A stretch of DNA of 64,000 bases. Source: Spironucleus salmonicida. Its lineage: Eukaryota. The notes below the pieces were generated by a model, which had not been told where the DNA came from, made no database searches, and saw only the letters and a list, made by a program, of their open reading frames with translations. The position numbers and the translations under genes are program-made. The stretch covers positions 310,001 through 374,000 of the forward strand of contig NC_090598.1 in assembly GCF_000497125.1 (NCBI RefSeq), written 5' to 3'. Positions 1 through 61,905 of the stretch are shown one piece after another; the stretch's first letter is position 1; each line of letters opens with the position of its first letter.

Positions 1-1043
1 AAAAACTAATATAAGTTTTAGTTCTTCAGCATTTGCTTTAAATTCTCTATTTCAGTAAGCAAAATTTTGACGATTTCAGCTTTATCAAATTGCATCAAAA
101 GGGTAAGTTTAGAAAGATTTTGTGTTTCATATTTCTATAAAAGTAGGTTTTTGGCGCTAAAAAGTTCTTCCTATAACAGATAAATAAGGTGGATTTGCTA
201 ATTTTGTGATAAATTTTCTGGTGAAATAAAATGATTCTACGAACTTTAATTTGATTCATTTTATGTTCCAGTTGATTCTTGTGCACAATGATCAGTTTAC
301 GTGATAGAATCCATATGTATCTAGTTTTCTGTAGAAATTTATTGTTAAACTAAATCCTAGGATGCTTAAATCTCGCGATTAATGCGTAGAATATTTATCA
401 CCGATATTTGACCATAATTATGGTCTTGCTAAACTGACAAATCTAGCTGCTTCTTATCACCGTTTCCCGCCTAATTTTGCTTGTCAGAAATCGATGCGCT
501 ACACTCCAAAACGGACGCACGCAGCACAGTTGAAGAAAGTTGGTTTTCGTGCTTCTGAGCGGCATTTTCCCGTTTCAATTCAGCAATGACGGACTGCTAA
601 ACGGACATCTGGGCCTGCGATTTAATGAGCAGCTCCTTGTACTTTTCGAGCTGCACTTTTTGGCTGTTCACGTCCGAACCCAGAGAGTCGCGCAGCGAGT
701 GCAAAGTACTGTTCAGGGAGTCAATCTCGCGATTTTTGGATGCCAGCTGCTGCTGGATCTGCTGGATCGCCAAGTTTTGATCAAAAACAGCGCGTTTTGC
801 GAGCGCCAGCTCGGTTTTGAGGTCGAAACCCTGCTTGGAGAGCGTGCTGTGCATCTGGTCGTACTGCTGCTCAAACTGCTTTTTCTGGTTAATTAGCAGG
901 TTCTTATCGTAGGTCAAATCCTTGAATTACTGCCCAATTGTTATAATTGTGTGTAGGCACCCGATCAGGTTTCCGTCTTAGAGTAGGTCAACGCAGCACT
1001 TTAACTGGTCTGGCAGCTCGTTGATTTACTAGGAAATTTGCAT
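1..1043 (-). CDS. Coiled-coil protein, 3'-partial (runs off the window edge)
   Basis: ATG at 1043 (MQISQQINELPDQLKCC...), open in table 6 to position 1; includes track ORF 597..917; heptad-like Q/E/K/L-rich sequence. Confidence 0.8.
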
Positions 1044-9784: not shown

Positions 9785-10066
9785 ATGAATAGACTAAAGC
9801 CACTACAAATAAAACCAACATCAAGACAAAATTCGTTAACAACCAGGTCATAATCGACAGCCTGCTTGCCTACAATTAGATCTAAACTATAACAAGTACA
9901 TTACAGTCATGATGCTCCACCATTGCACCTAAAACAGATAAATTCACTAGACTCTTTTGAGCTGCAGCTCTAAGGTGCATTTAATAGCAAAAAACTTAAG
10001 TATAAGACACCTCTAGAGCGTCTACGCGGTGAAATTAAGCACATACAGAAAGAAACCGAAAAGTGA
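9785..10066 (+). CDS. Hypothetical basic protein, 93 aa
   Basis: MNRLKPLQIKPTSRQ...KETEK*; ends AAG TGA; C-rich sequence upstream. Confidence 0.6.
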
Positions 10067-10077
10067 ATAAAATACTC

Positions 10078-11022
10078 TCACTAGCACGTATTCACGATCT
10101 GAACCACCTCATCACCAGCTTATACACACCCACCTTTAACGATCTACCAGCGCTCACAAACATTCATTTCATAAATAACATATACTCCTTGACAGAAACA
10201 CCCAATTTCTTGACCAGCTGCGTAAAAATCGCTCTCAGTAAATTAGACGCCCCGAACACCTTGGACAAATACCACAAAAGCGTTGCGGCCTTTCCAATCT
10301 CCATGAACTACAAATCGTGAATTATCACAAACGATTCTAGGAAGCTTTCCGATGGTGTTTTTGTTCAACGGGAACCACCCTTTCACAATTTCAAGTACAC
10401 GCGAAAAGACGAAATTGAACGGTGCGACGACCTGCTGGCTGTTAGCGCTGGACAGTTGGAAGTAGCAGTAGCCGTACTTACTGTTTTTGGTATTCGCGCA
10501 CCCTGTAACGGTCTCAAAGGTGTTCTAGAGTCCTACTTCGGCCTTTACCATTTCACTGGCAGAAAAATCTCCGAAAAATGCTTGCGAGCAATCCACAGGG
10601 CAGTAAATGCTGTTAATTTGTGACTCAGCGCGCACCAAAATACCGTCAATTTGCACGAAATGCCGCTAGTTTGCGATTGGGCGTTTATGAAAATCCTGCA
10701 AACTTAAATAGGTGGAATTAGACGTGGCATGCGAGTTGGCGCGTTTTTAGATGTATTTTATTATCAAATGCTGCGTGAAAAGGAAATTGAAAGGGCGGGA
10801 AACAAATCGATTGATCTAGTGTGCAATCAGGCTACGGGGTGAAAATATGAGCAGCGGTATAGAGAATGAGGAATAGTGGTTGGCTAGGAACGAAAAATAC
10901 GTTATAAATGACACTATAAGGGGCAGTGTGAATGCTAGTATAATGCTGTATTGAATTATGAGGATGAAAAATATCAAAAATGGGGCAATTAGGAGCAAAA
11001 ATATCGATGCGAGTTTGTGCAT
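10078..11022 (-). CDS. Phosphatidylserine decarboxylase-like membrane protein lacking the GS cleavage motif, 314 aa
   Basis: N-terminal TM helices; YLSLQDFHKRPI; GQEIGCFCQGVYVIYE (compare GQEMGRFKLGSTVI); GCVQAGDEV. Confidence 0.7.
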
Positions 11023-14288: not shown

Positions 14289-14717
14289 TCATTGTGATAT
14301 TTTTTCATTTTTATGATCAAAAAACTATTACAGTAAGGTTATAGCCTGCTATTCATAAGTAGTATCTTACTGCCAATTCAGCTTTTAATCTTAAATACCT
14401 TTCAAACTGCAAATTCCACCAAATTTGTCATTTTTTGCAGCGAAGATAACTTTCTAAATCCCTGCCTATGCAAGAGCTGCCGCACACATTATGCAAGGTT
14501 CTACTGTAGTGTAGCAAATTACGTTAGATAGATTCGCATATTTTTCGTTTTATAGTTACTCAATCATATATAGACATTTAATTTCAGCGTGTAGAATAGA
14601 CGAGAATGAATCATTATACGCTGTTGCTAAAACTATTCCATCACACATCATCGCGCAGCCTATTGGGACATGCTTCTCCACAAGTGCGATTCTGGCTACT
14701 TCCATAGCCCTCTCCAT
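14289..14717 (-). CDS. ADAT2: tRNA-specific adenosine deaminase (Tad2/ADAT2), 142 aa
   Basis: VPIGC, HAE, TVEPCIMC and NDKFGG motifs. Confidence 0.85.
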
Positions 14718-14744
14718 TTTAATTAAAAATTATATAATTCCCAA

Positions 14745-17405
14745 TCACTATTACGCTTTTTTCATGCTCTCCTTTCTCCTCTGTACCTTGACCTCGATAA
14801 CCTGCTCCTCGACATCGTCAATTTGCATCTGGCATTATCTCACCCTCTCGAGCCCCAAGAAGCTTTGGAACCCCTTTAAACCGACCCCACGAACGGCCTC
14901 AGTTGCGATTTAAACGCTCCCAGCCAAGCTACGGAGCCCGTTTTTGAACTATGCATCGGTCACGCCATTAAACCTCTAAACAAACACCTAAACGCTCTAA
15001 ATCAGAGCCTGCAGGTCGCTGCCGGAGCCTTTTCGCAACATGTCCCCAAAAACACCAGCGAGCTCTGCAGCGCAATCCTCGCCGATTTGGGCCCACAAAC
15101 TCGCCTATTTCGAATCGCGAGCAATCATCAGAATACACTTCTCCACAACATCGAAAACACCCATTTTGCACGCTGCCTGGATGCAGAAAATAGGCTGCTT
15201 CTCGTAGTTTTGGACCACGAAATCGCGATTTACGCCCGTAAGAACTCCCTAAATCCGGCCGAATTTCCGCTCGAAAACGACGATTCCGAAGCTCGTCGCC
15301 ACGTAAATAAAGCGCTGATTTGTACTGATTTTGATGGAAATCACGCGCGCTTCAAGTTTGCGCTGCTCAATTTGCTGGATTGGATCGAAAAATCGACGCG
15401 TTTTGAGGTCGATTTTCTGTGTCAAATTGATCAAATTCCGCTCGTCTGCAGTGACCTGCGGCAGTTTGTGCGTCCGTAGTTGCTCAGAAACGCTATCAGA
15501 ATCGATGTTTTCGAAGTCCAAATTGATCGAAATTTAGAGCTTTTGAACCATTGTGAGAACCTTCCCATTCGAAATGTTATAAATTAAGAGATATTTCGAG
15601 TAGCCGCCGAGAATTAGCAGGTCTCCTTATATTGCTAGTGAAGTTATTTGAGTAGATTTGTGATTTTTGTTGATTATTCCCTACCTGAGTAGCGTTGCAG
15701 CATTGATATGGTTGATTTGGGTTGCGGATTCAACATCAAATACGCTTATACAGCCATTTGCCAGGAACACTGCTACCTGAGTATTCTCCATGAATGCGAA
15801 ACCGAGTATTTCGTGTGTTTCATCAAGGGTGGAAATCGGCTTTCCTGAAGAGAATGTATCCATGATTCTCAACGTTTTGTCCCAGGATGTCGAATATAGC
15901 TCACCGTTACCGGTTGGGTTGAATTTAAGCTATGAGATCGGTCCTGTATGATACTTGCATGAATCAATTAGAAGAGATGTTCTAAGATCGAAAATGTTTA
16001 CGTTAAACTGTTGGTCAGAAGCTGCAATTATTTCGCCACTGGGATCGACAGAAACGTGGTCAAATGAGTTATTCTCAGTTTTAAATGTCCTAAAAATAAT
16101 GTTTTTCTTTAAATCATAGCAAATAACTGAGTCAATGCCAGCACTTACAAGAGCTTTGCTGGATTTAAAGAATTAAATATCTCTGACATCACCATTATGT
16201 GCTTGGAAGCGAGTTTGAACTTAGTTTTTAAAAATGTCAAATATGATAATCTCACCGTTAATTTAACCAATAGCAATAAATCTATTATCTGGAGAGATAT
16301 CAAAGGCCTGCATATTTATAGCAGTTTGATCATTTGTTTCCAATACTTGTGTCTGGAAATTATATATTTTAACTGTTTTCTCGTATTTACTTGACATGGC
16401 GACATATTAATTATTATAAGATAAAATAGATGTAATTGGATAAGGAGAAAGTGAAACTGTATGATTGATTTCGCTATCAACTATATAGTAGTAATGACCA
16501 TTTGATAAGCCTAACGATAATGCCTTTTTAGATGAGTTATAATGAGATGTAGTAACTATTGGATTTGGTTATTAATCTTCTTCAAAAATATTTTACTATG
16601 ATTTTAAGTAAAAAGAAACAAAGGGATGTTAGTTGTCTTCTAATATGAATCCAGGCTCCCAATATTATATATTACCAGATTGAAGTGTAACTATCAAGTT
16701 AAAATTAGCAAATTCCCCAGAAGAGTACTTATCATTAATTAATTCAAATTCTTCTGGAATTAAAGTTTATAACTTTAACTTTGATAAATAACTTAAAACA
16801 TCAAATGATTCGTTATTAGGCTATAAGTGAACATCCCGAATTGGATCAGGAGACTAAATAATAAATGGATGTCTTTCAAACATTTAGAATAATAATCTTT
16901 ACTCTTATAATGATTAAATTCGACTATCTAAATAAAATTAAACAGGTTATATTTAAATGTTAGACTTATTAGAAGCTACAATAAAGTTATTATCCATTGA
17001 AAATTTGACTGAAGAAGGTTTGAACGGAAGAAGGAACTGATATATTTAATTTTAATTACTAGAATTTAAAATAATTATTGTGTTACCAGAGTTATACATA
17101 AAGAATTAACCATCATCCGAAAATTAAATTGACTAGATATTAACCACTCTTTTTGTAAATACAGGTAAATAGTTCCTATTATAAAAAGTAATGGTCTAAC
17201 GGGAGTCTAATATACAGATAAATTCTTTTGATACTCCAAACTAGACTATATTGAATAAAGACTCAAATGGAAGTACTTGTGAAGAATTGCTCTTTACTGT
17301 ATATGTCTTTAAGTAATTATAAGCAGAAGAATATACAATACCTTCTAATTCTACAATACCAGCATCTGTATTAGCAGAAGCAAGTACATCTTAAAACTAG
17401 AACAT
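14745..17405 (-). CDS. PWP2: Periodic tryptophan protein 2 (Utp1), WD40 SSU processome factor, 886 aa
   Basis: FRTF..ENNSFDHVSVDPSGEII...HTGPISQLKFNP...STSWDKTLRIMDTF matches PWP2; N-terminal VLPFESLFNI. Confidence 0.9.
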
Positions 17406-17456
17406 TTTTTTAAAGTGAAAAATAAAAATTTATTATTATTATACATTATATTTACG

Positions 17457-21950: not shown

Positions 21951-22016
21951 TAAGGAATGGAAACTAGTAATAAACTATTATTTTATATAAATAATGAATT
22001 AATATAAAAATTTCAA

Positions 22017-23003
22017 ATGTCAGCAAATTCTTTTAGTAATCATACAGGATAATTAAGAAAAAATTTACCAAAATTTGTTAAAAATTACTGTTCCAATTAC
22101 TATATCTCAGGTATGAGAACTAATGTACAGATGCAAGGATATGCTCTTACTAATTTTTCTGGTACAGAATAGGAGGGTTCGTTTTCGAATAATAAGTCAG
22201 ATAACATGACACCAGTAATTTTGGATAGTTATTAATCATTTGAAAAACATGACGAAGTTAGTATTCTTTCTGCTCAAAATGAAGTACTTATTAGTACACC
22301 AACGAAATAAATTTATATAAATGCTTAAGAATAATTAGAGAAAATTAATGATAAATTAAATTCATATAATTCCAATGCTCCAATAGTTTCATTAGATGGA
22401 TAAACACCACAGACTTCTCAGTTAGATAAATCAAACGTAGTTATTAAATCAACTTCAGTCTAGAATTTATATAACTAAGTATTTAATGCATCAAAAATAA
22501 AGCACTTGAAGAAAAATAACGAATTGCATCCTGATTTTACTAAGACACTCAATCCATAAAAGTTAACTGAAGAATAACTTTTAGTACAATTACTAGCAAA
22601 ATATGAACCAGATCTGTTACACGCTTTATAGAGACACAGGAAATAAAGAAGAACAAGAGTTGATGAAAATGGTAATTTAATTAGTTAAGAGACTTCAATG
22701 ACAAATATGACCTGTATGGCCGAAACACCTAGCTAATTTATGGGCAAATTAAAAAGAAATTATTAACATAAAGTTGACGAATCTATTAAATAATAAACAA
22801 TTATAGATAAACATCACTATCTTAAAAATAAAATTAGAGCCTTATAAGCAGAAATAGACAGCGGTAAGGTAAAAGTTATTAATGCTAGAACTTAACTAGA
22901 ATAAGTATCAGTAGTTCTTGGTGAATAATTAGCTATGAATGAAAAGCATGAAGAAAATCTTTGCGATATGAAAATATCATAAGCAGAGCGTATGGGATTT
23001 TGA
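22017..23003 (+). CDS. Hypothetical protein with C-terminal coiled coil, 328 aa
   Basis: Open table-6 frame MSANSFSNH...AERMGF*. Confidence 0.8.
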
Positions 23004-25168: not shown

Positions 25169-25915
25169 TCACAATTTATCTTCATCAAACTGAAGATAGC
25201 TTTGAGTAGCCTGTTCTAAAAGATTAACAAGTTGTTTTTCAGCAGCTTCACGTTCTCTCTTTTCTTTAAGAAGCTCAGCATTTAATCTCTTATCAATTTC
25301 AACAATCATGCCTTAGAGGTCTGTTTACCATTTAACACGAACTTATTTTTCCTGGTACAACATTTAGTTGAGAGTGCTCATAACTTACTTAACTTTATTA
25401 TCGATTTCAGCCAATTAAAATTTAGTCTATTCTCTTTCTTAAGTCATGCCGGTTTTTAATCTGGGAAGATCCTGATCAAAAATATCCTGCCTAGAATTGC
25501 ACTAGTCATTTCTGATGAATCCTTCTTATGCAACTTCTTCTTTAGCAGCTCCAGAACGGGCTTCAAAAGCTTTGATAAGATCGCGACCCATTTCAGCACG
25601 CTATTCCTCCATATTACGAATTTCTTATTAAAGGTTACCACGAACTGATTCAAGCTCATACGACTTAGCTTCGAAAACTTCTTGCAAAGACTTGGATTCT
25701 CTATCTATATCCTTGCTCAACTGGTTTAAACGCTCATTAAGAGTTTTGAATTGCTATTGGTTATAAGCATCTGCTTCAGTGACAACTGCAGTAAGCTCGG
25801 TAATACGACCCATAAGAGTATCATATTTCTGATTTCTACGAGTTTCTAAGTCAGAGCGAAGCATTGAAAGACGGCCTTATAAGTTAGTAAGACGAGATTG
25901 ATCAACTTCTGACAT
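25169..25915 (-). CDS. SF-assemblin/giardin-family coiled-coil cytoskeletal protein, 248 aa
   Basis: Segmented coiled coil ending EKREREAAEKQLVNLLEQAT, as in the striated-fibre assemblin family. Confidence 0.75.
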
Positions 25916-29880: not shown

Positions 29881-30362
29881 TGCATTTCGTGTCTTTTGAC
29901 CATTTTCATAGTAGGTAAACCTTAAACTGTATGTAGAATTAGAATATTATTCCAAATTCTAATTATTAATTAGAATAATATTTGTCATAGATATTTAAAT
30001 TAATATTTAATGAATACGTAAACAATTCATAATAATGGCTAGATTTTTACAGGTTCTCATTATTTATTTAATTAGATAGTACTTTTATTGTAAGCTTCTT
30101 TTAATCTTTATGATCATTATATAAACAATGTTAATATAAATAAATCCGCGTATTTCTCTATAATTGACCATATCAATAGATTAATTAATTAACAACCAAA
30201 AACTATAATTATTCGATATTTTTGAATTATAAGTTGGTGCATATAACATAGTAAACTATTAATATACTTAGATATATAATTTAAAATAAAATAAAACATT
30301 TAAAAATGATATTAATATATTATAGAATGTGATGTTAAATTAATTATTAAAAAAGTATTCGC

Positions 30363-31223
30363 TCATGGGGTTATTAAATAACATTAATCTTCTATACCAC
30401 ATTCATTTTATCCCCTCAATATTCTAAAAAATCCATTTTCTCCAAAATCTTTACCCCATGAGTTCTTAATTATCCAATAGGGCACATCGTTCTCTTCTCC
30501 ATAACCTACTATCATCACTGCATGTCCACCTTCTTCATTGCCAGAAACATGTTGATAAATTCCACTGTCGTAATACATAAAATCAGAATAAACAGTAAAA
30601 GCAGTTTAAACAATACCTTTTCTAACGGCAGTTTTCATACGTTCTGAACCACTACAAATATTTTAAGTTTTTTTTGCTTTAATAAACTGGAGTTCAGTTT
30701 TATCCGAACATTTTTTAGGACACCTACCCTATTTCTCTGATTCTCCTGAAGTATATGGTACGCATGTATCTTTGACTGTTCCTGTACTGATTAGATAATA
30801 TTAAACTACTTTTGAGTATCCACCAAAACATCCATCGTCAATAGGGTCACAAGATACTACATACTATTCAGAAAGTTAAACACGGTTCTAGTCAATTTTT
30901 TTAATACATCTATTATCAGCAAGTTAGTTTACAGCTGAGAAAGCCCAGCAAGATCCACACCCTCCTTAGTCACGCACTGTATCAGGCCCTGAACACTAAG
31001 GCATTTCCGTCGCCCAGTTCCAGGTTTCTGGTGTCTCTCCTGTTAATAATACAGTTGGAGAAGGGATTTAATTGATATTTTAATTGAAAAGAGATTTTAC
31101 TTATAGAGAAGACATTCCTTGGAAGCGTTTAGGAATAGCAGCTTACCATTTTTTCTAAGGTATGCGATTTAATGATTCAAGAAATTCTTACTTATGATAG
31201 AGATTAGCTAACAGCATAAACAT
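30363..31223 (-). CDS. Cathepsin B-like cysteine protease (C1A), paralog 1, 286 aa
   Basis: RD-Q(TAA)-GGCGSCWAF, [13 protein letters not shown]; short hydrophobic N-terminus. Confidence 0.95.
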
Positions 31224-32840: not shown

Positions 32841-33449
32841 ATGCTTCTAGCGACTTCCTTTATTTTTTCAAACACCTACGCCACATTAGACTTTCTAAAA
32901 CAGGAAATCGACCCACTAGTCTTTCCTTCGTCGTTTTTTCTGCAAACACACGCTCCGCATTATACGATTTCTCGCCCACAAGGCCCGGCATGCCACCCTG
33001 ATTCGTACTCTGACGAGCAAATTGACGCCCTCACGCCGCCTGAAAAAGCTGCTCGCATACGCCACAATTTCATCTATGACAGCACCGGAACGCGCAAGTA
33101 TCCGGTTTAAGACAACCATTTCAAGTACCAGCTAAAAGACATGAAAACAGATTCTAAATACAAAAAGTTCCGTGGAAGCTGCTTTATCACTTTAATTGCA
33201 GATGATTTTTTTCACGTGAACCATCTCGTTGTGAAAATGGAATTTCTGCCTCTCCTTGCGCCTGCAAAAGCGGCAGATTTGGAGGTCGAATTGCTCGTAA
33301 ATTTGATGAATCCGAGCTACGATTTTGCTGCTGAAAAAGGAATTTTTGAAGGGCGCGAAATGGCGTGCACGAAATGGTAGAAAATTGCGGGGAAAGGTGC
33401 AGAGTTTCTATGGGAAATTGATGAGGAAGGGTGGGTGACCGAAGATTGA
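32841..33449 (+). CDS. Hypothetical protein, possibly secreted, 202 aa
   Basis: Track ORFs 32841..33110 and 33141..33380 join through TAA/TAG into one frame ending TGA 33447. Confidence 0.8.
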
Positions 33450-33640
33450 GAATTGTATTTAAAATTGTATAATAATATATAAAATTTTCGATAATTGGAA
33501 GGGACAAATTAAGATATATTAAATATTACAATATGAAATTCAATATATATATATTTAAATAATTGTAAAAATAAAAATACTATTATTGCTTATTTTAGTA
33601 TGGTAATTGTTTCTTTTTTGCGTTCAATTTAGTTTATAAA

Positions 33641-35767
33641 ATGGAGAGTTAAGGTGTATTTTTGAATGACAATAATAAGGTGGTAGATGACCTTAACATA
33701 CGCGATTTAGATCTAATTAATACTTTAATAAACACTTAGGTAGTTATGCAATAAGGATCTAATTCGATCCGCCAAGACTGTGAGAAGTCCATGTCCGTTG
33801 TCGACAAGGTAGCTTCTATCCGCCAAGACTGTGAGAAGTCCATGTCCGTTGTCGACAAGGTAGCTTCTATCCGCTAAGACTGTGAGAAGTCCATGTCCGT
33901 TGTCGACAAGGTAGCTTCTATCCGCTAAGACTGTGAGAAGTCCATGTCCGTTGTCGACAAGGTAGCTTCTATCCGCCAAGACTGTGAGAAGTCCATGTCC
34001 GTTGTCGACAAGGTAGCTTCTATCCGCCAAGACTGTGAGAAGTCCATGTCCGTTGTCGACAAGGTAGCTTCTATCCGCCAAGACTGTGAGAAGTCCATGT
34101 CCGTTGTCGACAAGGTAGCTTCTATCCGCTAAGACTGTGAGAAGTCCATGTCCGTTGTCGACAAGGTAGCTTCTATCCGCCAAGACTGTGAGAAGTCCAT
34201 GTCCGTTGTCGACAAGGTAGCTTCTATCCGCTAAGACTGTGAGAAGTCCATGTCCGTTGTCGACAAGGTAGCTTCTATCCGCCAAGACTGTGAGAAGTCC
34301 ATGTCCGTTGTCGACAAGGTAGCTTCTATCCGCTAAGACTGTGAGAAGTCCATGTCCGCTGTCGACAAGGTAGCTTCTGTTCACGCTTCTATCCGCTAAG
34401 ACTGTGAGAAGTCCATGTCCGTTGTCGACAAGGTAGCTTCTATCCGCCAAGACTGTGAGAAGTCCATGTCCGTTGTCGACAAGGTAGCTTCTATCCGCTA
34501 AGACTGTGAGAAGTCCATGTCCGTTGTCGACAAGGTAGCTTCTATCCGCTAAGACTGTGAGAAGTCCATGTCCGTTGTCGACAAGGTAGCTTCTATCCGC
34601 CAAGACTGTGAGAAGTCCATGTCCGTTGTCGACAAGGTAGCTTCTATCCGCTAAGACTGTGAGAAGTCCATGTCCGTTGTCGACAAGGTAGCTTCTATCC
34701 GCCAAGACTGTGAGAAGTCCATGTCCGTTGTCGACAAGGTAGCTTCTATCCGCTAAGACTGTGAGAAGTCCATGTCCGTTGTCGACAAGGTAGCTTCTAT
34801 CCGCTAAGACTGTGAGAAGTCCATGTCCGCTGTCGACAAGGTAGCTTCTGTTCACGCTTCTATCCGCTAAGACTGTGAGAAGTCCATGTCCGTTGTCGAC
34901 AAGGTAGCTTCTATCCGCTAAGACTGTGAGAAGTCCATGTCCGCTGTCGACAAGGTAGCTTCTGTTCACGCTTCTATCCGCTAAGACTGTGAGAAGTCCA
35001 TGTCCGTTGTCGACAAGGTAGCTTCTGTTCACGCTTCTATCCGCTAAGACTGTGAGAAGTCCATGTCCGTTGTCGACAAGGTAGCTTCTGTTCACGCTTC
35101 TATCCGCTAAGACTGTGAGAAGTCCATGTCCGTTGTCGACAAGGTAGCTTCTATCCGCTAAGACTGTGAGAAGTCCATGTCCGTTGTCGACAAGGTAGCT
35201 TCTGTTCATTAGGAGGCCGAGAAGTCTGTGCAATAAATTTCATTTTTCATGCAAACGGCCGAAGAATTATAATCTAGATCGCTATAAACATCTAATTTAC
35301 ACTGTTCTGTTAAATAAACTGAAGTTACTCCATAAGATTCATTTTAAACATGTTCTATAATAACAAATGATATCAGTCAGATGTGTGCACCTTAGCTTCC
35401 TTGCTATATATCATAACCTTAATAAACATCATAATGTGCTATTACAGATTTTTAGTGCCAGTGTGACTGTACTTCCATAGAAAATGATTATGAGAATATG
35501 AACGAAAGTTTTTGCGTATAAGTTTGCCCTGAATAAAAAATGGTTTTCTCTAATTAACTTGTTTTAGATATACAGCCTAATTTATAGGATTATTTATATA
35601 ATAATGCTTAATCTACCTCAGCAATAGATTTTGCAATTTAAACAGATAATGTTATTGTCATTATCCCTCCTAATAGAGCTAAATTTTTAGCTTCTAGTAG
35701 TGTTTGTGGTTTTCTAGGTGTTGTCGCTACAGGAATAAGTGGTATTGCGGGCTGGATGATGAAGTGA
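33641..35767 (+). CDS. Tandem-repeat protein (27 x IRQDCEKSMSVVDKVAS) with Cys-rich region and hydrophobic C-terminal tail, 708 aa
   Basis: One frame from ATG 33641 through the array to AAG TGA; tail FLASSSVCGFLGVVATGISGIAGWMMK. Confidence 0.85.
33767..35203 (+). repeat. Coding minisatellite, 27 x 51 bp, five units with a 12-bp insert (GTTCACGCTTCT)
   Basis: Unit ATCCGC(C/T)AAGACTGTGAGAAGTCCATGTCCG(T/C)TGTCGACAAGGTAGCTTCT; 27x51+5x12=1437 bp. Confidence 0.97.
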
Positions 35768-35796: not shown

Positions 35797-36834
35797 TCAA
35801 ATTAAACTTTCCTATGTTAAAATAATTTTACCCACTACAATAATATCATCAATAATTAAACAATCAAAAGTAAGCTTTTTAAATTATTTTTAAAATAATA
35901 ACTCTACGGGTTTAATTTATAATGCACCAAAAATATCAAAATCAATATCTCCTTCTTTCACAAATAGCTTGCCTAAAAATCTAAAAATAAATGAAGATAA
36001 CACAACATGTGGAATTAGTATAACTACCTATTAATTAAAAGCTATTTATGGACCTAGAATCTATGTAATATTCTAAATAAGTCCTAAATAACCATATTTA
36101 ACTCTTGGTAATGTGCAAGCAAAAATATTTTTTTTCACACAAACAATACAATTTTCAATATAAAAATCTCCTACTAAACGCATAGTTTACGGGCCAAAGT
36201 CAATATTTTAACTTTATACAACTGGAAATTGTAATTATGGTGGCTCACCTATTGGTAAAGCTTAAATAGGATGTTAATAGTTAGACTAAGCAAATTTTAA
36301 ACAATTATTAACTAATGTTGCGTTAAAATTACATAATTTTGCTAAAATAAGAGCTGTTTATGGTGTAACAAACTATATTTATTAAGGTTCGTTCAAAAAT
36401 GTAAGCTAATCAGAATTTACCATTTTCAGGGCAAAAGCCTTTTTCTATATTATATTTTAAGCATTTTAAAGAGTAATATCAAGTGTAAGGTTGAAAGGTG
36501 TTTATAGTGTTACTTAATATGTTTAATTTGGAATAAGTTAAGCTTAAATAATTGTACCTAGAAAATTTTCAGCTGTGAAATCGCGACAGTTTAATTTAAA
36601 ATAAACAGCTATATCATTCTCAGTTAAATTTTACTTAATAAAGGTATATTTCGATTTTTTGTTTAAAAAATAAGATGTTTTCTAAAGGGTAGCTTCATCT
36701 AATGATATAGCTGTATTTTCTAGTTTGAAATAACCTTTAATCCCAAAAATTTTATCTTAAAACACAGCTTTAACCTATTGAAAATCATTATTTGTTTAAT
36801 AATTAAATGAAACAATTTTAAATACTCCTATCAT
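35797..36834 (-). CDS. Hypothetical protein, 345 aa
   Basis: MIGVFKIVSFNY... in frame with TGA at 35797; divergent from MCM4 across a 59-bp AT-rich spacer. Confidence 0.7.
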
Positions 36835-36893
36835 TTTCAGATAATTATATATGGATATAATATTTATATATATATTATTTCTACAAAATTTAA

Positions 36894-39173
<2,280 letters not shown>

Positions 39174-39190
39174 AGCCCCAGTACTATCAT

Positions 39191-39610
39191 TCATTTTAGC
39201 TCAACTGTCAGCGGAATGCATACATAGTTCTTGTTATACCTGCATATGTGCTTGAAGTCCAGCATGAAAACTCCATAATTATCATTGTCCACATTCTAGA
39301 AGAAGTGCCTGAATGCTATCGGGTGCTTCTTGAACAGTTCCTCGTAAACATCAGCATAGTCTTACCTACTTAATTTTTGAACCTCTGCATTTATTCTGTA
39401 CATATTCTTCACCCTCCACAGGCTGCCGTAGTTGGCTGTAATATTTTAGTTAATATCTAACGCATCCCATTTGTTTGAATCGACACCGGTTGCCATAACA
39501 TAAGCATTTGCAGTAGCCGAGTAAAAAAGTGTCATCCACAAAACTCTAGGATATCCATTAGTTTCGTAAGAAAATAGTACCGGTGTGTTGTCTTTGAAGG
39601 GGAGCTCCAT
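39191..39610 (-). CDS. Pyridoxamine 5'-phosphate oxidase-like FMN-binding protein, copy B, 139 aa
   Basis: Duplicate of 2177..2596 with one V/A difference. Confidence 0.7.
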
Positions 39611-40424
39611 TTATAATTATACTTTGAAGATGGGAAATTGATATTACCATAAATCTAAAGGTTAGTAGTCGTTGAAAATCGAAAAATTTGAAATTATGGC
39701 ATTCGGAACAAAAATTTGTTATAACCTAGATAATGGATTTTTGTAGCGACCCATATAAATTGATTATTTAAACAATAAATTACATGGTTAGTTGCATAAC
39801 TTTGAAGGTTAAGACAATCTTTCAATATAAATAATAAAAAAGATATAACTACGCATGTAATAGCTATTGAGTATACCTGATCAGATTTTTGTAAATTTAC
39901 CTAGATTAAAATCTTTTAATTAATAATTTATAAAAATATAATGGTCATAAATTCATAAAATCTGTACTGATAAATTTTTAATATCATTAATATTACGCAA
40001 TATAAAAGTTAATAAATACTATTCAAGCTTTAATGGACTGTAGGATTGTACTTATTTAGTATATAAGTGTAATTTAGAAAATATAAGCCTTATATCAAGT
40101 AGTTTCGATTAAAATAATCAATTAACTAAAAAATAATCGATATCATTTTTACTATGAAGTAAATATAACTATAATAATTTTGAAAATATTCATTAATTAT
40201 TAGATTATTTATAATTATTGATAACAATTTTTACTTCAATAACTCGTTCAATAATATTATTAAATTCTATATTAGTGATATTCACTTTATACATATCTAT
40301 AGTCTTTAATTTTATTCAGCTTGGCTAGAAAAAGGAATTATATTTAATATTAAAAGGCCCAATACTATTGAGATTCAAGTTAAAATTTAATTTTTGATCT
40401 AAAATGTGTCAAAATATGATTCAT

Positions 40425-41285
<861 letters not shown>

Positions 41286-41614
41286 TTTAGGAAGTAGTTT
41301 CTAAAGACTAATAAAACTCAGAATACAATATTTTTATAAGGTTAAGACTTAATATTAAAAAATATAGATTATCTAAAAACGAGATAAGTATATAATTCAA
41401 TTAATAAATTTATTTAAAAACTTTTTTAATAACTCCTGGAAATATTTTAATTTTCAGGTTTATACTTGTAACTATTTTTAAATATTATAACATAATATAC
41501 CATTAATTTATTTTTGTAATCTTCCCTTTCAGAGATTGTTTGCTTATTCTTATTCCAGGCTGAAAACGACCTTATCTTACAACATCTTAACCAAAAACTG
41601 ACTGATAATTTCAC

Positions 41615-44476
41615 TCACTCAACCTTACTGTACCAGGCTACAAATGCTTTAAATTAGTATTGCAACCTATGCACTTGCAGATACTGCAATAATTCATGTT
41701 ATATTTCTTGTAAGTCGCCTTCAGTTTGGAACGAGAAAACAAACTTGCGACCCTACCAAAGCCGCTGGTCTGCTACTAAATCGCGCTTTCCACCAGCCCA
41801 ATTCCGTAAAGAATTAAGGTAAAAATTATCGGCTATTTCGAGAGAATTAAGCAAGTTATTCTGCTTAAATGACCGCTGCTCTTTCACTTTCTAATTCATT
41901 AAATTCAAGCATTTTGCCTTTAAATCAAAATCCTGCTTATTCATTATTATATCTGAAACAAGTGAAATACGATACAATTTTTTCCACTTCTTCAAACTGT
42001 GAATTATTGAAAATTTGTTATATTTAACTTCTACAATTCTTATTAGCGTTAAATGATTTCGCCAATTTTGCAAAATTTGAGCCAAAATGATCGGATTTGC
42101 GATTTTTTGAGCCAGAAAAGTACGATTTTTCCACTCAAAAAACACGTTCAAAGCGAAATTGAATTGCGTTTTTCGCTCCTAAATAAATTTTGCCTTTTGC
42201 AATTTTTAGCTCTTTTAACGCACAAATTGGAACGTTTTGGCCAGCTTTTTAGACTCAAAATCGAACTGGTAACTCGCGATCAGCGAGGCCTCGTAAAACG
42301 ACTATTTTAGCGCTTTGAAGGCCCGAAAACGCAGTTTTTGCTCGTACGATTTCGTCGTTTTTAGCACTGAATTTTCGGCTTAAACGGCGTTTGAAAGGCT
42401 CAAAAGTGCGATTTTCGGCAGCTAATTTTGCTCGTAAAACTCCTATTTCCACCAGTTTTGGGCCGCTTTTGCGAAGAGTTTTTTGAGCAATTTCCGCTTT
42501 CGCAGTTCGGTCGACAGCGCCTCAAAAGTGGTCCTTTGCACCTTCCCAGCGATTCTGTGGCTTAAGAGATTTCCCTTTTCGCGCGATTCCCTGAAAATCG
42601 TTGTTAGGGCGTTCCAGTTCAAATAAAAGGGTTTTACGAGAGTTATTTCTTGAAGAAGTGATATAATGACGGTGAAATTAGAGTTTCGGCGCTTTTCTGC
42701 ATCGATTAGGCGCTTCCAGTGCTAAATTTGCCTTCTCATGATAATCAGTTTGAAAAATCTGTCAGCTTTTACCTGCTGGGTGGTTGTCAAGAGCTGCTTT
42801 GACAGTTAAAATAGCGTTTTGAAGTATTTTTAGCATATTATGGTCGTTTAAAAAGTTGAAATAATGTTCTGACTGCATAGTTTTTGCACCTGTGTGGCCT
42901 TACCAAACCTGCTGATATATCTTTTTAGAAGGTTTCGTTAGGAATAGTCAGTTTCGATTCGGATATAATATTGCTATTTTAGATGCTTTGAGTACCAATT
43001 GTGGAAGCATTATGCAGTTATGTACAATTTGCTACGGATAGTTACTGCATCTTAAATATCAGATCTTTCAATTTGGCGTTACAAGTCCGATGGCAAATTT
43101 TCTAAATCTAAAATTGATCTTTCATGATTGATATAAAACAATTTGTTCGAACATGAAAGAAGCAATTTGTGCTCTTTGATTTACTAAAGATATTATTTTG
43201 TATTAAATTAAACCAATTTTGTATCTATTTTATTTGTAGTTTATGATATTTTTACTGCAGGTACTTGAAAAATTGAAAGTCTGCTTTATACGAGCAAATT
43301 AGAAATTGAATTCGGATACTTTTAACTATGCAAAATAATTTATGAAAATTTGAATTTGTTAGTTAAAGGAATGAAAAATGAAAATAATTTAGTCTGATAT
43401 TAAGTATATAAACCTTTATAGTAATTAATATCCCTATAAAAATCTTAATCTTCAATAGGATGAGAATTTGCTGATTCGATGAATTTAATATCTGTTTTAT
43501 TATTTAATGTACTTCCCAATAGCTTAGTTCTTAGCATCATTTTTCTATTTATTTTATTTTTAAGATGAGTAAAATTTAAACACAACAGCTATTAAATATA
43601 GAAATTATCGGCACAATTTTCGATTTATTTTTCGTTAAATGCAAGATACATAAAATTGAAAAGAAACTGCATATATTTACCATTACATATTTATACGGCA
43701 ATTTCATTATTATTTAGATTGTTTGATACTGTATTTTTCCATTAATAAAATATATTAGAACTACCTCTATTTTGTATGGTTTTTATCTAATTAATTTTAT
43801 AAATATGTCTTAAAAGAAGAAAAACGTTTGCATATTATATTTCAATATTACTTATATTAAGAGCATTGATAAGTTTTTTCTTTAGTCTTTATATTTTGAA
43901 ATTGGATTTAATAATTGTTAAAAGCAATTAATTTTATCTTTATTTTATCATTTATTTGTTGATTTCCATATTTTAACTTTTAAGTACAATCAATCTGCTT
44001 ACTATTATTAAAATAGACTCTTTAAACTTTAAAGTAGTTGAGTTAATAATCTAGTTAATAGCATTAATACGCTAAGCATTAAATAAGTGATTTCTATTGA
44101 TTAAATGTTAAAATTATCTGTAAAATTTCTTATATTATAAATTTTATGGAATTTTTGGCTTTATAAGCAGTAGTAATTCGGACTCAGGAATAATTTTTTA
44201 TATAATTTTAGAAGCTTAAGGAAGCTCAACGTCTGGCTTATCAGTAACCGATAAATTTTACTCTCTAGCAGTATTTTATGAGTGAATTTTAATTTTAAGA
44301 GGATTAGTTATATCTAGATCACCTAATAATAATTTCTTGCTTGCGACCCTTTTAATAGCTCTTCTTGGTTCTGGAGCGGGTAAAGGTGGTGGAGACTAAG
44401 CCATTTCCTATAATGCTTTTTATCTATCTAGTTTTCTTTGGAGCCTTTTAGATTAAATTTATTCTAAATCCTGCAT
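41615..44476 (-). CDS. Sfi1-like centrin-binding repeat protein, 953 aa
   Basis: Repeated Trp motifs: CFHNWYSK, ADRFFKLIIMRRQIQHWKR, FFEWKNR, LQNWRNH, LKKWKKL, AFVAWYSK. Confidence 0.75.
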
Positions 44477-44525
44477 TTTTGCTAAAAATTATATGATATA
44501 TTATTATATAATTTACTTATCAAAG

Positions 44526-45104
44526 TCACTTTTTATTGTGGTGGAAAATATAAAAACCAAGTGCATCTACTAATATTAAAGCACCACTTATACTCCATAG
44601 AGTTATGTTTACCAATTTTTCTACTTTTTTCATATGAGATACTAATTTATTTGCTTATCCTGTATTTTATACAATATTCGTAGTAGTCCCAGAAATACCT
44701 CTCATCTATTAGTTTTATTAACCTAGTACGTTAACTACATCAGTAGCAATAGTATTTGCTTCATCCATCATTTGATCAGTATCATTAAGGTACATATTAG
44801 CCTCTGCTAAATTTTTATTCTATCCATATTTAGGTTAACTAACCGTTTAAGCATTAACAAGTTATTCTAACTCTTACAATTCGGTGTTTAACTTTCGTAG
44901 TGCACTTTAAGAGTTAGTATACTCTTGTCCTTTAAGTTTGGATATATAGCTTGAAGCATTCACAAAAGTCTATCTTGCTTATGTTGTTATATTTTTAGCC
45001 TATGGTATACCATTCACACCTTTTTATATGCTGATTTTAGCCTACCTTACAGAATTCTAAACTTCCTATGCAAGATCTAAAAATTAATCATACTATTCAG
45101 ACAT
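44526..45104 (-). CDS. Qb-SNARE, Vti1-like, 192 aa
   Basis: Helical N-terminal domain; SNARE motif EANTIATDVVNVLGQQNQQMRGI; C-terminal TM. Confidence 0.8.
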
Positions 45105-48200: not shown

Positions 48201-49412
48201 ATAGCACAGAAAATCTCTACAGCTTTTATTAATTCTTAGGAAGTTTAATTCAGTTAATTTATCTTATAATAAGCTATTTTCTAACCAGTAGTCAATGAAA
48301 ATTAATAAGCTGGGTCATTGGGACGTATTTTTGAAACAAATACATAAACTACCTAAATTTTATACTCTATTATTTCCAAAGAATTATAAGCAATTCTGAG
48401 AGCTCTATTGCGCTTTTCACCAGGAGCTCGACCTCCTGCAGAAGCAATAAGAAAAGATCCTATTTTTACAGCAATTCAAGAAACTTAAAAATTAAAAATT
48501 GTTAAATGGAATAATGCTATTAATATGATGAAAGCTGCTAAAATGCAAAAAGAAAAGAAAGTAATAGTCAACGCATGGGAAAATCCCAAATCATATGAAA
48601 GAGGTGTAGTTTAGTAAGAGGTTGGTGTTAAAATTAACAAAAAATTAATTTAAATGGAAGATTAATTTGAAGCTGAGATAGCCTCATTCTAGAAAATGCA
48701 CGAAAGCGTACTATTAGACTTAGACGAGAGTTAGTTCATCATGGAAGACTATAAGTTAAAATCTGTTAAACATGAGGAAATATCAGTAAAAGAGCAATCA
48801 GATTTTGAAGAAAGTAATGATTAGATAGAAATGTTCATGAATAAAGATGACTTTTAACAAATGTATGATTACGAGCTTAGTGACGACATCAAATTCGTTG
48901 GATCAGGCACCGTTTCAGAGGATAGTTGCGATAGTGTTGTTAGTATTAAATTTTAGAAAACTGAGGAAGAAAAATAAGCGGAATACAAAGCATATTAATA
49001 GTAGCACAAGGCCAAAGAACATGCTTTACTTCAAAAAGAAACAGATGAAATCAAACAGCAAATGGAAGAGCTTGATTTAGAGAAATAAATCCCCGAAGAT
49101 GACGATATTGAGAAAGAGGCTGCAATTTACGAGCACGAATAAGAAGAAAAAGTAGAGAATGAAAACGTGTATTATGACGACTAAGGAAATGCACATTATT
49201 ACGATTAGGAGTAATAATAACCCGAAATTTATGAACAACCCAAGGAGATGCATTAGGATCCTTATGCCACAAATTATAACTAGTACTAACAATACGGTTA
49301 AGACACCCAAAAGCAGGAATACGATCCTTACGGCGAATATGCTTACGAATAGCAACCAGCTGATCAGAATGGTCATAACGATTCCAACACCTTTGACCCG
49401 TTCGCGATGTGA
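45234..49412 (+). CDS. Large protein: beta-propeller-like N-terminus, helical region, pseudokinase domain, acidic Tyr/Gln tail, 1392 aa
   Basis: VHGKITPHNVFL (no HRD Asp), no DFG, WEAPE, TDLWSLGMI, ALLRFSPGARP; tail with DPY, DPY, DPF. Confidence 0.8.
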
Positions 49413-49423
49413 AAAACGTAACT

Positions 49424-50314
49424 TCACTTTACTAACTAGATGTCTTTTGACTCTTTTGGCTCCTGTGGAAGCTGCTTCGAACTGAACTGTAATTTTGAGA
49501 TCAGACCCTCTAGTTCCTCGTCTACTTCTTCCTAGTACTAGTTTCGTTCCAATTTTTATTGATATTCAATCTCGCAGACGTCGAATTCGACTAGCTAGAC
49601 AAGCGAATCTTCCTTCAGATCTAACCACCTGTAGTCGATTATTTCAGTTTTTCCATATAAATAATACAGTCCGTGCACGTTACCTAAGAAGTCAGTAGCC
49701 TTGACGTAAAGTTGAATGAGTGTCAACAGCCAAACTGGTCCTATAACGATCAAATCCTCGAACCCCATGCACATTAACTGCTATATAATTCTTGTTGGTA
49801 GCGTTTTTGAGATGACATTCTTAGTCTAACATGTATTTGTGCAGAGCACCTTCAGCCTATTGGATTTAGCAGAATACTTATCTGCGTAGATAAGATTATC
49901 AGGGGAATGACACGAAATCATATGATAATAGCTGCCTCCGTTTACCTTATCAAAGTAGAATGCCAGAGAAGTTGATAGCTCGTGTGAGATCACAACTGAT
50001 TAACTATTAAATTTCGGAGGATCAATACTGATCACTTGGGGGATAAATTGATAGTCTATAGCTAGCTTATTATGTTCCTGTGATTTTAAAAATATTTTAA
50101 CTCTGTGCGCTTGAGAATTAACAACAAATGAGAATACACCGTCAAAGTATAATAATGATCCTACTTTTAACTAAGTCCCAGTTTCAAGAACTATTGAAAA
50201 TATATCATATCTCAGTCTACGTATTTCATATATAATACACCCCTACTGGTGTTCCTCCGTGTGTAATACGGTTGAAATTCCAGTCGTAGGGTTCTCACCA
50301 CACCCGCAGCCCAT
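49424..50314 (-). CDS. MGCGC-initiated protein with possible degenerate FNR-like fold, 296 aa
   Basis: MGCGC N-terminus; IYEIRRLRYDIFSIVL..LKVG, SCHSPDNLIYAD, LIVIGP; ends AAG TGA. Confidence 0.65.
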
Positions 50315-53282: not shown

Positions 53283-53861
53283 ATGATTATCAAGCCAATT
53301 AATCCAGCAGACTGTCTTCCTGAGCTCTAAGTTAACATCCCCTAGCAGTTCATAAACAACCAACATCAGTAATACCCCGAATTCTTTACGGATTTCTTTA
53401 AAACATCAGGTCACGATTTGTCATCTTTCCCTCAAGATTGCCGTGCAGATACCCTGCTGAAAATGCATTTTCCAGGCTAAATCGGAGCCCCAGAAGAGCG
53501 TTTTGTGCAGCTGCTGAATTTTGCAACAAATTTCTACAAGGAACTGATCCAATCAACGCAGAAGATGGGTGAAACGACAAACAAGCATTTTCACTTTTTG
53601 CTGGGTACGGCCCACGCCAAGCAGCTCAGATACACGATCGCCAACGATCCCGAAGCCAGAATGCGCATGCTCGAATTTGGAGCAGAAACTTTGCGTTATT
53701 TGGGAAGCGACTTCAGTGAATTTGAAGCGAAAATTCAAATTGTGCACTAAATTGCAGTTCATGTCGCAATTTTGAGAAGTGAAATGACCGAGTTTCAGGA
53801 CTTCTAGGATTTTGATGAAGCAGACCCGTTTGTGAGACTCTTTGCGGTTTGCCAGGAATGA
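53283..53861 (+). CDS. Hypothetical protein, 192 aa
   Basis: MIIKPINPADCLPEL...FAVCQE*; contains track ORF 53505..53750. Confidence 0.8.
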
Positions 53862-60717: not shown

Positions 60718-61905
60718 TCACTTCCTACCAAATTTGGCCAGAGCCTCAATAGCCAAAATGGCCTTAGGATCCGTAATTTCCTTATTTTTTCGTCTTTCCA
60801 TTAACTAATTTTTTTGTCTATAATAAGCTACAATTTTTTCGCTAACTTAAACGCGATACGCAAAGGTCTTTCCATCAATTTTAACATCCGCAACGTCCCC
60901 AATTTCCTCAAATTCGTCCCCTGCCTACCGTGCGGCCTCTTAGCAAATACACTCTGAGTCCTCTGTCTGTGTCACCGCATTAATAGATACGCTCTACCCA
61001 GGAAACATATGAACCTACATTTACTGCTGAACAGCAACCTAATTCCGCTAAACCTCGTCCATACTGAGCTACCTGCGCCCGGTTGAAGTACGCGGAATCT
61101 GCGTGATAATCGATCTGGGCTGCGGCTTCTCGCCATCGTCTATGGCCTTGCGCCAACGGTGAAATTTTGTCTCAAAGTTCTACACGTGAAATCGTGTCAG
61201 TTTTAGGAATGTGCCGGGCAGAATTCCCGTTGTATAAAGCTTCACCACCTCATCAAAATCACGTACGTGCGATTCCGGACCCTCCGTAAACTTCATAGCC
61301 GCAATGTCGATAATGGTGAATTTGTCGCCAGTTTGCAGGAAAAGCAGCCCGCCTGAGCAGCACAGGAATTCGGATTAGAGCGGTAGCGGAGGACCCTAGA
61401 TTAGCCTAGAGTCCTGGAGCTGAATTTAGCACACCGCGTGCGGTGTCCAGAGCAGCGCAGAGCGCATGAAACCGAAAATTCGGACGCCCTAAAAGACGCT
61501 TTCCGCGGCCCGAAACTGGAAATCTGGCATCCTGCCAATGAACAATTTTTCGGCCAAAACTGCTATTCCAGAGCCTATTGGTGCGATTTTTCCGTACGTG
61601 TCCTGCTCCTAAACGACTTTCAGCGGAAGCTGGCAAATTGCGATAACGCCCGTTTCGGTGAACTCGTAGAGGTGATTTAAGACTTGTCCAATGACCTTAC
61701 CGTCAATGTAGTATGTGACGTAGCGATATGCTGGCGCAAATAGGCCTTAATTAGCAATATGAGGGAAGTTGGGTAGTGGGGTTTGCGAAATTATCTCAAA
61801 GAGCTCGTTCGTTTGGAAAAGCGTGTTATCTGAGTAAAATAAGAATGAATTGAAGTAGGGGTTGCTGAATAGGCGGTATTGTGGATCGAGTACTTAGTTT
61901 TGCAT
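60718..61905 (-). CDS. Hypothetical protein, 395 aa
   Basis: Fully translated open frame MQNQVLDPQY...AKFGRK*; ends AAG TGA. Confidence 0.8.

Follow-up and report, generated by a model that had tools for sequence, protein, structure and literature searches.

An 11-bp wave of A/T tracts in coding DNA of Spironucleus salmonicida

The A/T periodicity of coding DNA is usually a weak genome-wide statistic, and whether it originates from the encoded protein or from the DNA itself is disputed. A 64,000-nucleotide stretch of Spironucleus salmonicida (contig NC_090598.1, positions 310,001 to 374,000 of the forward strand; referred to below as the window and numbered from its first letter) raises this question at one particular place. 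Between positions 41996 and 42520, inside a long open reading frame (ORF), A/T tracts of 4–8 bp alternate with CG/GC-rich spacers for about 48 periods. Is this wave dictated by the protein or written into the DNA, and what might it be for? Being local and strong, it allows a clean separation of DNA-level and protein-level causes by means of synonymous sites, of phase in nucleotide coordinates, and of a double dissociation from helical periodicity. The wave turns out to be a property of the DNA with a repeat of about 11 bp, and it may represent a selected element of DNA shape.

Position, period and strength of the waves

When the bases of the main wave (41996..42520) are divided into W (A or T) and S (G or C), a power of 27.8–28.2 is obtained at 10.95–11.00 bp. 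WW dinucleotides peak at 11.00 bp with a power of 40.6, which drops to 11.8 at 10.5 bp and to 3.4 at 10.2 bp; AA/TT gives 33.1 at 11.05 bp. The segment holds 43 W-runs of at least four bases, spaced by 10.5 in the median and by 11.6 on average, and its autocorrelation is positive at 11, 22, 33, 44, 54–55, and 66 without decay. Tracking of the phase at P = 10.95 reveals three blocks (about 42029–42110, 42095–42292, and 42260–42520). Since the phase is constant inside these blocks of ~200 bp and jumps by ~80 degrees between them, the local period is truly ~10.95 bp. The original prediction, made from the sequence alone, had listed fifteen tracts near 42 kb and seven near 15.4 kb; 14 of the former and six of the latter lie no more than 2 bp from the centre of a W-run of at least four bases, and the two misses, 42150 and 15379, are 3-base runs. 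The repeat of about 10.5 bp, or one helical turn, that had been read from these tracts should be corrected to the measured 10.95–11.0 bp.

The main wave has two weaker flanks. The one on the 3′ side of the gene (41764..41928) reaches, in 132-nt windows, a power of 9.2 at 11.4 bp and 10.0 at 11.0 bp, and the other (42589..42753) has a shorter repeat of ~10.1 bp, at which windows of the same size give 10.2 and 8.5. A second wave, with a repeat of 10.7–11.0 bp, occupies 15057..15536 (core 15128–15358); its power is 15.7–17.0 in 300-nt windows and 13.2–13.8 in 132-nt windows.

How unusual these values are can be judged from two kinds of control. A family-wise null, in which the codon order was shuffled inside each of 630 coding windows in 300 replicates, has its 95th percentile at 12.7 and its maximum at 16.8; the main wave (26–28) is far outside this distribution, and the second wave is about at its extreme. 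Codon-block shuffles were also carried out island by island (300 per island) for the eight GC- and CpG-rich islands that the original prediction had named and that are described below. In two of the eight, namely those with the wave sites 41996–42520 and 15057–15536, no shuffle out of 300 reaches the observed power. Thus, phased A/T tracts exceed chance at two places of the window. Three further islands contain weak candidates: 60811..61110 in island 60831–61831 (11.4 bp, power 10.5, 3/300 shuffles), 33171..33470 in island 32894–33408 (11.6 bp, power 10.3, 8/300), and 441..740 in island 426–967 (11.2 bp, power 7.0, 7/300). In the remaining three, a wave finds no support, as the observed power is reached by 30, 38, and 70 of the 300 codon-block shuffles. 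Altogether, p ≤ 0.03 is found in five of the eight islands versus one of 20 control coding segments, and that control peaks at 10.2 bp. The wave is associated with GC islands but does not occur regularly in each of them, and the picture of a phased core in every island, one each ~5–12 kb, gives way to two strong cases, three weak ones, and three without any. Apart from the islands, an AT-rich part of the EFL1-like gene (19836–20135) carries a 10.2-bp repeat with a power of 11.6–12.5 (0/200 codon-block shuffles); the length of this repeat departs from that of the 11-bp waves and is nearer to the nucleosomal one.

The spacers between the tracts have a characteristic composition. The observed-to-expected (o/e) ratio of CpG is 1.87 in the main wave and 1.67 in the second, that of GpC is 1.97 and 1.45, and CC/GG is depleted to 0.71 and 0.62, respectively. 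The excess of CpG and GpC in both waves bears out the CG-rich spacers that had been described before. CC/GG stands at 0.68–0.93 in the other islands, of which only 426–967 (0.68) comes inside the range of the waves, and the CpG/GpC ratio of AT-rich DNA is ~0.5. A choice of CG/GC over CC/GG is not expected from a simple W-to-S drive; it fits anisotropic bendability, in which A/T tracts occupy one face of the helix and alternating G/C steps the other, as established DNA mechanics has it.

Tandem or diverged repeats were considered as a source of the wave and ruled out. Tandem Repeats Finder reports nothing at either wave site, there is no power at 99, 66, 49.5, 33, 22, or 16.5 nt, and base identity within the W and S classes at lags of 11n is ~0.5, the W/S class alone being periodic. 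The two waves show no similarity to each other, and no further copy of either is present in the window.

DNA or protein as the source of the wave

The main wave lies in an ORF of the minus strand (41618..44629; 1004 codons if taken as 41615..44629) that is open only when TAA and TAG are read as glutamine. This reading applies to the window: around 42 kb, long uninterrupted ORFs appear only under it, and with the standard code, the region around the wave holds short ORFs only. In the source gene model, the ORF yields a protein of 953 amino acids (P0162). The protein matches no Pfam family at E ≤ 0.001, or even at E ≤ 1 if a chance-level viral match is set aside, and no usable relative was found among 5.8 billion word-indexed and 1.84 billion HMMER-scanned proteins; its only match, one 175-aa protein (E 9e-9), falls outside the wave. 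Judging from these searches, the host protein appears to be lineage-specific, and its sequence is probably weakly constrained. A single-sequence AlphaFold2 (AF2) model with a predicted local distance difference test (pLDDT) score of 38 is all-helical, which should be read as a secondary-structure tendency only. The gene had been called “Sfi1-like”, a name that goes by motif only: there is neither a match to an Sfi1 family profile nor a named homologue, and the label reflects nine loose [hydrophobic]-x2-W-x motifs situated 23–248 residues apart. The Sfi1 repeat follows the consensus [F/L/W/Y]-x2-W-[K/R] on a long helix.

Contigs that look like RNA (their RNA nature is a guess; they come from a second study) cover 41548–43357 and 44172–44470. 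Such contigs lie on genes and not between them, and since they show no joints or differences over 41548–43357, this region is taken to be exonic and free of assembly artefacts. The stretch 43358–44171 of the same ORF has no cover of this kind, which is not taken as evidence on whether one gene or two are present. Directly downstream of the wave-bearing gene lies one of two papain-family (cathepsin-like) paralogues (30357–31199 and 40419–41261) that are 73.5% identical in DNA.

The most direct evidence on the source of the wave comes from synonymous sites. When codons for the same amino acid were permuted among their positions (300 replicates), the power of the main wave fell from 28.2 to a mean of 7.0 (maximum 13.8) and that of the second wave from 11.0 to 3.1, and at neither wave did any of the 300 shuffles reach the observed value. 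The periodicity thus exceeds the synonymous-shuffle controls against which it had been proposed to check it. Shuffling of the codon order leaves the main wave with a mean power of 4.6. Codon context was allowed for by a logistic model of the third position that includes the amino acid, the first and second bases of the same codon, the first and second bases of the next codon, and an interaction; it was fitted in-sample on the region with first positions fixed as observed, which is generous to the null. The next base does bear on the third position (coefficient ~1.0), and the model attains a power of 16.3 ± 2.8 for the main wave, with none of 500 simulations reaching the observed one.

The distribution of the signal over codon positions leads in the same direction. 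The W fraction of third positions in the main wave swings between 0.16 and 0.88 with wave phase, and the amplitudes at codon positions 1, 2, and 3 are 24.8, 7.5, and 27.3 (per-position powers 13.2, 5.3, and 18.4). Counted in nucleotides, positions 1 and 3 share one phase: position 3 departs from position 1 by 4 degrees (bootstrap 95% interval −14 to 24), where a residue-level signal predicts −66 degrees. The corresponding difference in the second wave is 15 degrees (−35 to 57).

A protein-level explanation would run as follows: a helix or hendecad repeat of 3.6–3.67 residues sets AT-rich codons every 11 nt, and context-dependent codon choice amplifies the effect. The wave period of 10.95 nt does equal 3.65 aa, an almost entirely helical structure is predicted for the host protein, whose amino-acid sequence alone gives a power of ~7 at the wave period, and the next-base dependence of the third position would provide the amplification. 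Nevertheless, neither synonymous shuffling nor the context model reproduces the wave, and the phase test excludes a residue-level signal. The core of the main wave also lacks the periodicity of hydrophobic and charged residues. Hydrophobicity on the Kyte–Doolittle (KD) scale at 3.4–3.9 aa has a power of 3.1, equalled by 93 of 200 residue shuffles and hence no peak, and neither LIVFMW (power 1.3) nor the charged residues KRED (2.4) are periodic. It is the amino acids with AT-rich codons (FYMINK) alone that show a periodicity, with a power of 6.8 at 3.70 aa (4/200 shuffles).

The opposite situation is found in an ORF that resembles SF-assemblin/beta-giardin (25172–25900, minus strand; Pfam E 4.2e-5, under the curated cut-off) and lies in a moderately GC-rich segment. 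Its LIVFMW residues are exceptionally regular (power 25.2 at 3.62 aa, 0/200 shuffles), yet no DNA wave accompanies this strongly helical pattern: the best window has a power of 5.3, which 38 of 200 shuffles reach. The second wave, in turn, spans beta strands. The core of this wave extends over the last propeller blade of a PWP2-like protein, whose best non-self match is 27% identical, and over its first C-terminal helices. PDB chains of Pwp2 match this protein at E 0.03–0.06 with the last blade aligned (yeast Pwp2, 5i2t, is a weak match at E 0.034), and a single-sequence AF2 model of the fragment (pLDDT 48), again indicative of tendency only, has strands at 153–191 and helices from 203 on. It had been suggested with the original prediction that helical protein periodicity might fully explain the repeat, which would then be absent from islands in non-helical proteins such as PWP2; the synonymous, phase, and hydrophobicity tests, together with the strands crossed here, speak otherwise. 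The codon echo of amphipathic helices (3.6 aa = 10.8 nt), discussed in PMC4132750, shares its period and one helical host protein with the waves described here, and is unlike them in that these lack hydrophobic periodicity, are mostly synonymous, keep phase in nucleotides, and are missing from the SF-assemblin-like control.

The W/S wave belongs to the DNA, not to the protein. It is written mainly by synonymous choice, at third positions and, in Leu, Arg, and Gln codons, also at the first; a secondary contribution comes from the placing at the crests of amino acids whose codons are AT-rich. Because the protein tests come out negative, the existing amino-acid periodicity is more plausibly regarded as following from the DNA wave, and the protein-level explanation is largely refuted.

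A possible DNA-shape element and its alternatives

Two separate things have to be distinguished, namely a regional GC enrichment in patches of 0.4–1.5 kb and the 11.0-bp wave in two of these patches. As for the wave, we would give an even chance to the explanation that it is a selected DNA-shape element, in other words, a duplex-level W/S wave of 11.0 bp that extends over ~0.5 kb and serves as a fixed architectural or topological site. With phased A/T tracts and with GC/CG steps half a repeat away, the duplex would bend preferentially to one side. Since the repeat is longer than the 10.5-bp turn of B-DNA, successive bends should precess, by ~17 degrees per repeat according to our own calculation. 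The resulting path, also calculated here, would be a shallow superhelix with ~230 bp per turn, near the length of a phase block, and would resemble neither a planar arc nor a nucleosome-like 10.2-bp wrap. Such DNA might favour a particular writhe or wrapping by a non-nucleosomal partner, and it would appear where the encoded protein is weakly constrained. If the wave is indeed selected, DNA mechanics can override codon choice and even amino-acid choice in a eukaryote.

The wider proposal, according to which the diplomonad nuclear genome carries discrete elements of ~0.5 kb that are selected as architectural DNA and written into ordinary genes, is more doubtful. Should it be true, such elements could act as anchor points for supercoils or curvature, as chromatin boundaries, or as initiation zones; they would be, within eukaryotic coding DNA, what structural periodicity is in bacteria and what the periodic An/Tn clusters (PATCs) are in worms, and DNA shape could dictate protein sequence in weakly constrained genes. 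The original prediction, which spoke of a structural code over unrelated genes, stands as far as a duplex-level W/S signal at two sites is concerned, while the marking of origins is not borne out and a role in chromatin is no more than a conjecture.

Several observations weigh against a selected element. A repeat of 11.0 bp is at odds with free B-DNA as well as with nucleosomal DNA. Clear waves number two in 64 kb, and the remainder of the window shows only a weak and broad bump at 10–12 bp. Moreover, the amino-acid sequence alone retains its power of ~7 at the same period; this period is that of the alpha-helix repeat (3.65 aa × 3), the stronger of the two waves is found in a predicted all-helical protein, and the match may be no coincidence.

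Anatomically, the closest known system appears to be the ~11-bp AT-tract periodicity of bacteria. According to Lehmann, Machne and Herzel 2014 (PMC4132750), it arises mostly from coding regions and from codon positions 1 and 3, is abolished by codon-order shuffling, and is cut to 10–20% by synonymous replacement; yeast periodicity is reported there to peak near 10 bp. Atzinger and Lawrence (PMC7537859) regard such periodicity as being under selection, but not simply as a matter of bending. The waves described here are similar in that a WW repeat of ~11 bp in coding DNA is found at both sites, in that codon positions 1 and 3 prevail over position 2, and in the losses upon shuffling (from 28.2 to 4.6 for codon order and to 7.0 for synonymous codons). 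The bacterial, notably cyanobacterial, “structural code” differs in being weak, genome-wide, and tied to the nucleoid or to supercoiling, whereas the waves belong to a eukaryotic nuclear genome, span ~0.5 kb, are readable by eye, entrain amino-acid choice, and lie in GC-rich patches. The wave segment may be viewed as a local, intense, eukaryotic counterpart of this code.

Among eukaryotes, the PATCs of C. elegans seem to be the nearest analogue; as reportedly described by Frokjaer-Jensen et al. in 2016, they have a ~10-bp repeat and occur in introns and non-coding DNA. Both are local arrays of phased short A/T tracts that extend over hundreds of base pairs in a eukaryote, with a proposed action through DNA or chromatin structure; unlike PATCs, the waves have a repeat of 11.0 bp and lie inside ORFs. 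The rotational signals of nucleosomes, which Satchwell, Drew and Travers are said to have found in 1986 and which Widom 601 is said to share, consist of WW/SS at 10.0–10.3 bp. They too alternate A/T and G/C steps half a turn apart, with GC/CG at the opposite phase, but the WW power of the main wave, 40.6 at 11.0 bp, is as low as 3.4 at 10.2 bp, and coherence extends over ~200 bp or more, beyond one core particle.

The alternative that survives best, unlikely as we consider it, is that the wave is a functionless by-product: a GC-enriching process (biased gene conversion or repair) would act unevenly round the helix in a fixed rotational setting, G/C would build up on one face and A/T persist on the other, and the pattern, once begun, would reinforce that setting. 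This agrees with the occurrence of strong waves only inside GC islands and of weak 11.2–11.6 bp signals in three more of them, with the length of the phase blocks (~200 bp), and with the fact that the shift extends to every codon position and to amino-acid usage, as it would under a coding-blind pressure. However, the amplitude is very large (0.16–0.88 for W at third positions), and most islands have no strong wave, including the GC-richest ones, 60831–61831 and 33742–35238. The choice of CG/GC over CC/GG in the spacers is not predicted by a simple W-to-S drive either, and we know of no bound particle with an 11.0-bp repeat.

A signal at the RNA level seems improbable. The wave would then shape mRNA structure or form, together with an antisense transcript, a duplex recognized by proteins; an A-form duplex has 11 bp per turn, and the region is covered by RNA-like contigs, which carry no strand. 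In comparison with dinucleotide shuffles, however, the folding of both wave cores is ordinary, with z = −0.80 (44 of 200 shuffles fold as well) and z = −0.30 (72 of 200), and on the coding strand the crests contain A-tracts as well as T-tracts, which fits a strand-symmetric property of the duplex.

Equally improbable is the marking of replication origins by the islands. The islands recur every 5–10 kb, and in 12 of 16 the GC-skew difference goes from negative to positive, with z > 3 in four; on the plus strand, this switch from C-rich to G-rich is seen even at third codon positions. The skew, however, is oriented by the genes. In 29 pooled ORFs, the coding-strand GC skew changes between the first and the last quarter of the gene from 0.18 to 0.42 at position 1, from −0.36 to −0.02 at position 2, and from −0.09 to 0.12 at position 3, the last quarter being higher at position 3 in 21 of the 29 genes; ORFs 60721–61905 (−), 32841–33446 (+), and 41618–43474 (−) exemplify the gradient. 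The sign is opposite at islands over convergent gene ends (49275–49947, 38483–39521, and 2271–2845), and the skew decays inside ~0.5 kb, unlike a skew driven by replication forks. Since the skew switch is a gene-wide 5′-to-3′ gradient, it lends no support to origins, of which the original prediction had regarded the islands as possible marks, the switch following gene direction and reversing at convergent ends. The gradient itself could reflect an asymmetry of mutation linked to transcription, or codon preferences that change along the gene.

The protein-level explanation discussed above is, on the tests presented there, very improbable. Dual coding, by which a second frame or an antisense ORF would constrain the “synonymous” sites, is hardly credible: other frames are open across the core (e.g., 42111–42653 on the plus strand, 180 codons in table 6), but open frames are common in the window (113 ORFs of at least 200 aa) because TGA is the only stop, a second protein would constrain base identity, yet the W/S class alone is periodic, and the GC content of the three codon positions (GC1/GC2/GC3) matches the minus-strand frame, as in other islands.

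GC-rich islands and gene content of the window

The islands were delineated by smoothing GC over 200 bp and keeping segments of at least 250 bp with GC > 0.38. The scan gives 16 segments, which comprise all eight patches recognized before and eight more. The eight correspond to 426–967, 9879–10923, 14673–15992, 21533–21883, 32894–33408, 42191–42749, 53346–53785, and 60831–61831, with a CpG o/e of 0.79–1.51 as against 0.88 window-wide. The patch of the main wave had been drawn at 41520–43000; this span has only 0.38 GC overall, and the core above 0.38 is 42191–42749 (GC 0.43, CpG o/e 1.51, GpC o/e 1.63).

As had been noticed earlier, the islands ignore gene boundaries. They cover the 3′ part of the PWP2-like WD40 ORF (14748–17456, minus strand, 903 codons, with WD40/beta-propeller hits in Pfam), where island 14673–15992 (GC 0.45) takes up the 3′ 1.2 kb, the 3′ half of ORF 41618–44629, and the 5′ part of the ORF for an EFL1-like GTPase (19176–22019, minus strand, identified by Pfam). 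Inside a gene, the GC shift is sharp and affects every codon position, GC3 most, values of 0.48–0.55 for GC3 in the patches contrasting with 0.22–0.33 elsewhere in their genes. In the PWP2-like gene, GC1/GC2/GC3 is 0.48/0.34/0.54 in the island versus 0.32/0.28/0.22 in the remainder; GC3 is 0.39 versus 0.27 in the EFL1-like gene and 0.49 versus 0.33 in ORF 41618–43474. Amino-acid usage changes as well: Gly, Ala, Arg, and Pro are more frequent in islands, with the exception of ORF 60721, which is steady at 0.23, while Phe, Tyr, Met, Ile, Asn, and Lys are 0.03–0.16 lower in five of the seven genes compared. In ORF 41618–43474, the usage of these six is not lowered (0.37 in the island versus 0.36). 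Sharp intragenic heterogeneity of GC3 is thereby flagged in a diplomonad, and little is known about recombination, chromatin, and replication origins in diplomonads.

Since GC is raised at all codon positions regardless of gene borders, the pattern is the one expected of a coding-blind regional W-to-S pressure, and the enrichment of the islands most likely results from such a pressure, e.g., GC-biased gene conversion. Tracts of gene conversion have the same indifference to codon position and gene border, and duplicated DNA in the window is GC-rich; conversion alone, however, predicts no 11-bp wave. Circumstantial support comes from the sole large duplication of the window, an inverted segmental one (1852–2914 versus 39935–38873; 1,064 bp, 98.8% identical), both copies of which overlap GC-rich segments (2271–2845 and 38483–39521, GC 0.42), and from PMC9509377, which gives 44.7% GC for duplicated regions of S. 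salmonicida and 30.7% for the non-duplicated part of the genome, the latter being close to the 0.303 of the 64-kb window. A look-up of terms in the accessible text of the S. salmonicida genome literature did not turn up any account of GC islands, skew, or periodicity, and the literature on Spironucleus in combination with GC skew or GC-rich yielded only unrelated papers. The inverted duplication carries a PNPOx-like ORF whose copies differ by one residue.

In addition to the genes already named, a Pfam scan of 49 ORFs translated with table 6 identified an MCM protein (36729–39170, plus strand), a UBR-box protein, TRAF and RING finger proteins, two papain-family proteases, and one kinase. Among named proteins, the MCM protein is closest to MCM4 from Hexamita inflata (42% identity), followed by that from Giardia muris (38%). 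The window is intron-poor, with no Rfam match at gathering score and no tRNAs, and the MCM4 relatives make its source an intron-poor hexamitine diplomonad; a ciliate, which the reading of TAA and TAG as glutamine could have suggested, is rejected on the same ground.

Two of the GC-rich segments have further features of their own. The GC-richest segment of the window contains a tandem array (33763–35203) of ~27 copies of a 51-bp unit (93% matches, GC 0.50). Several of its frames are open, it encodes 17-residue repeats, and it carries no 11-bp wave. Island 9879–10923 encodes a phosphatidylserine-decarboxylase-like domain (PF02666, E 1.7e-9) in ORF 10081–11001 (minus strand), where the domain is preceded by a hydrophobic N-terminal stretch.

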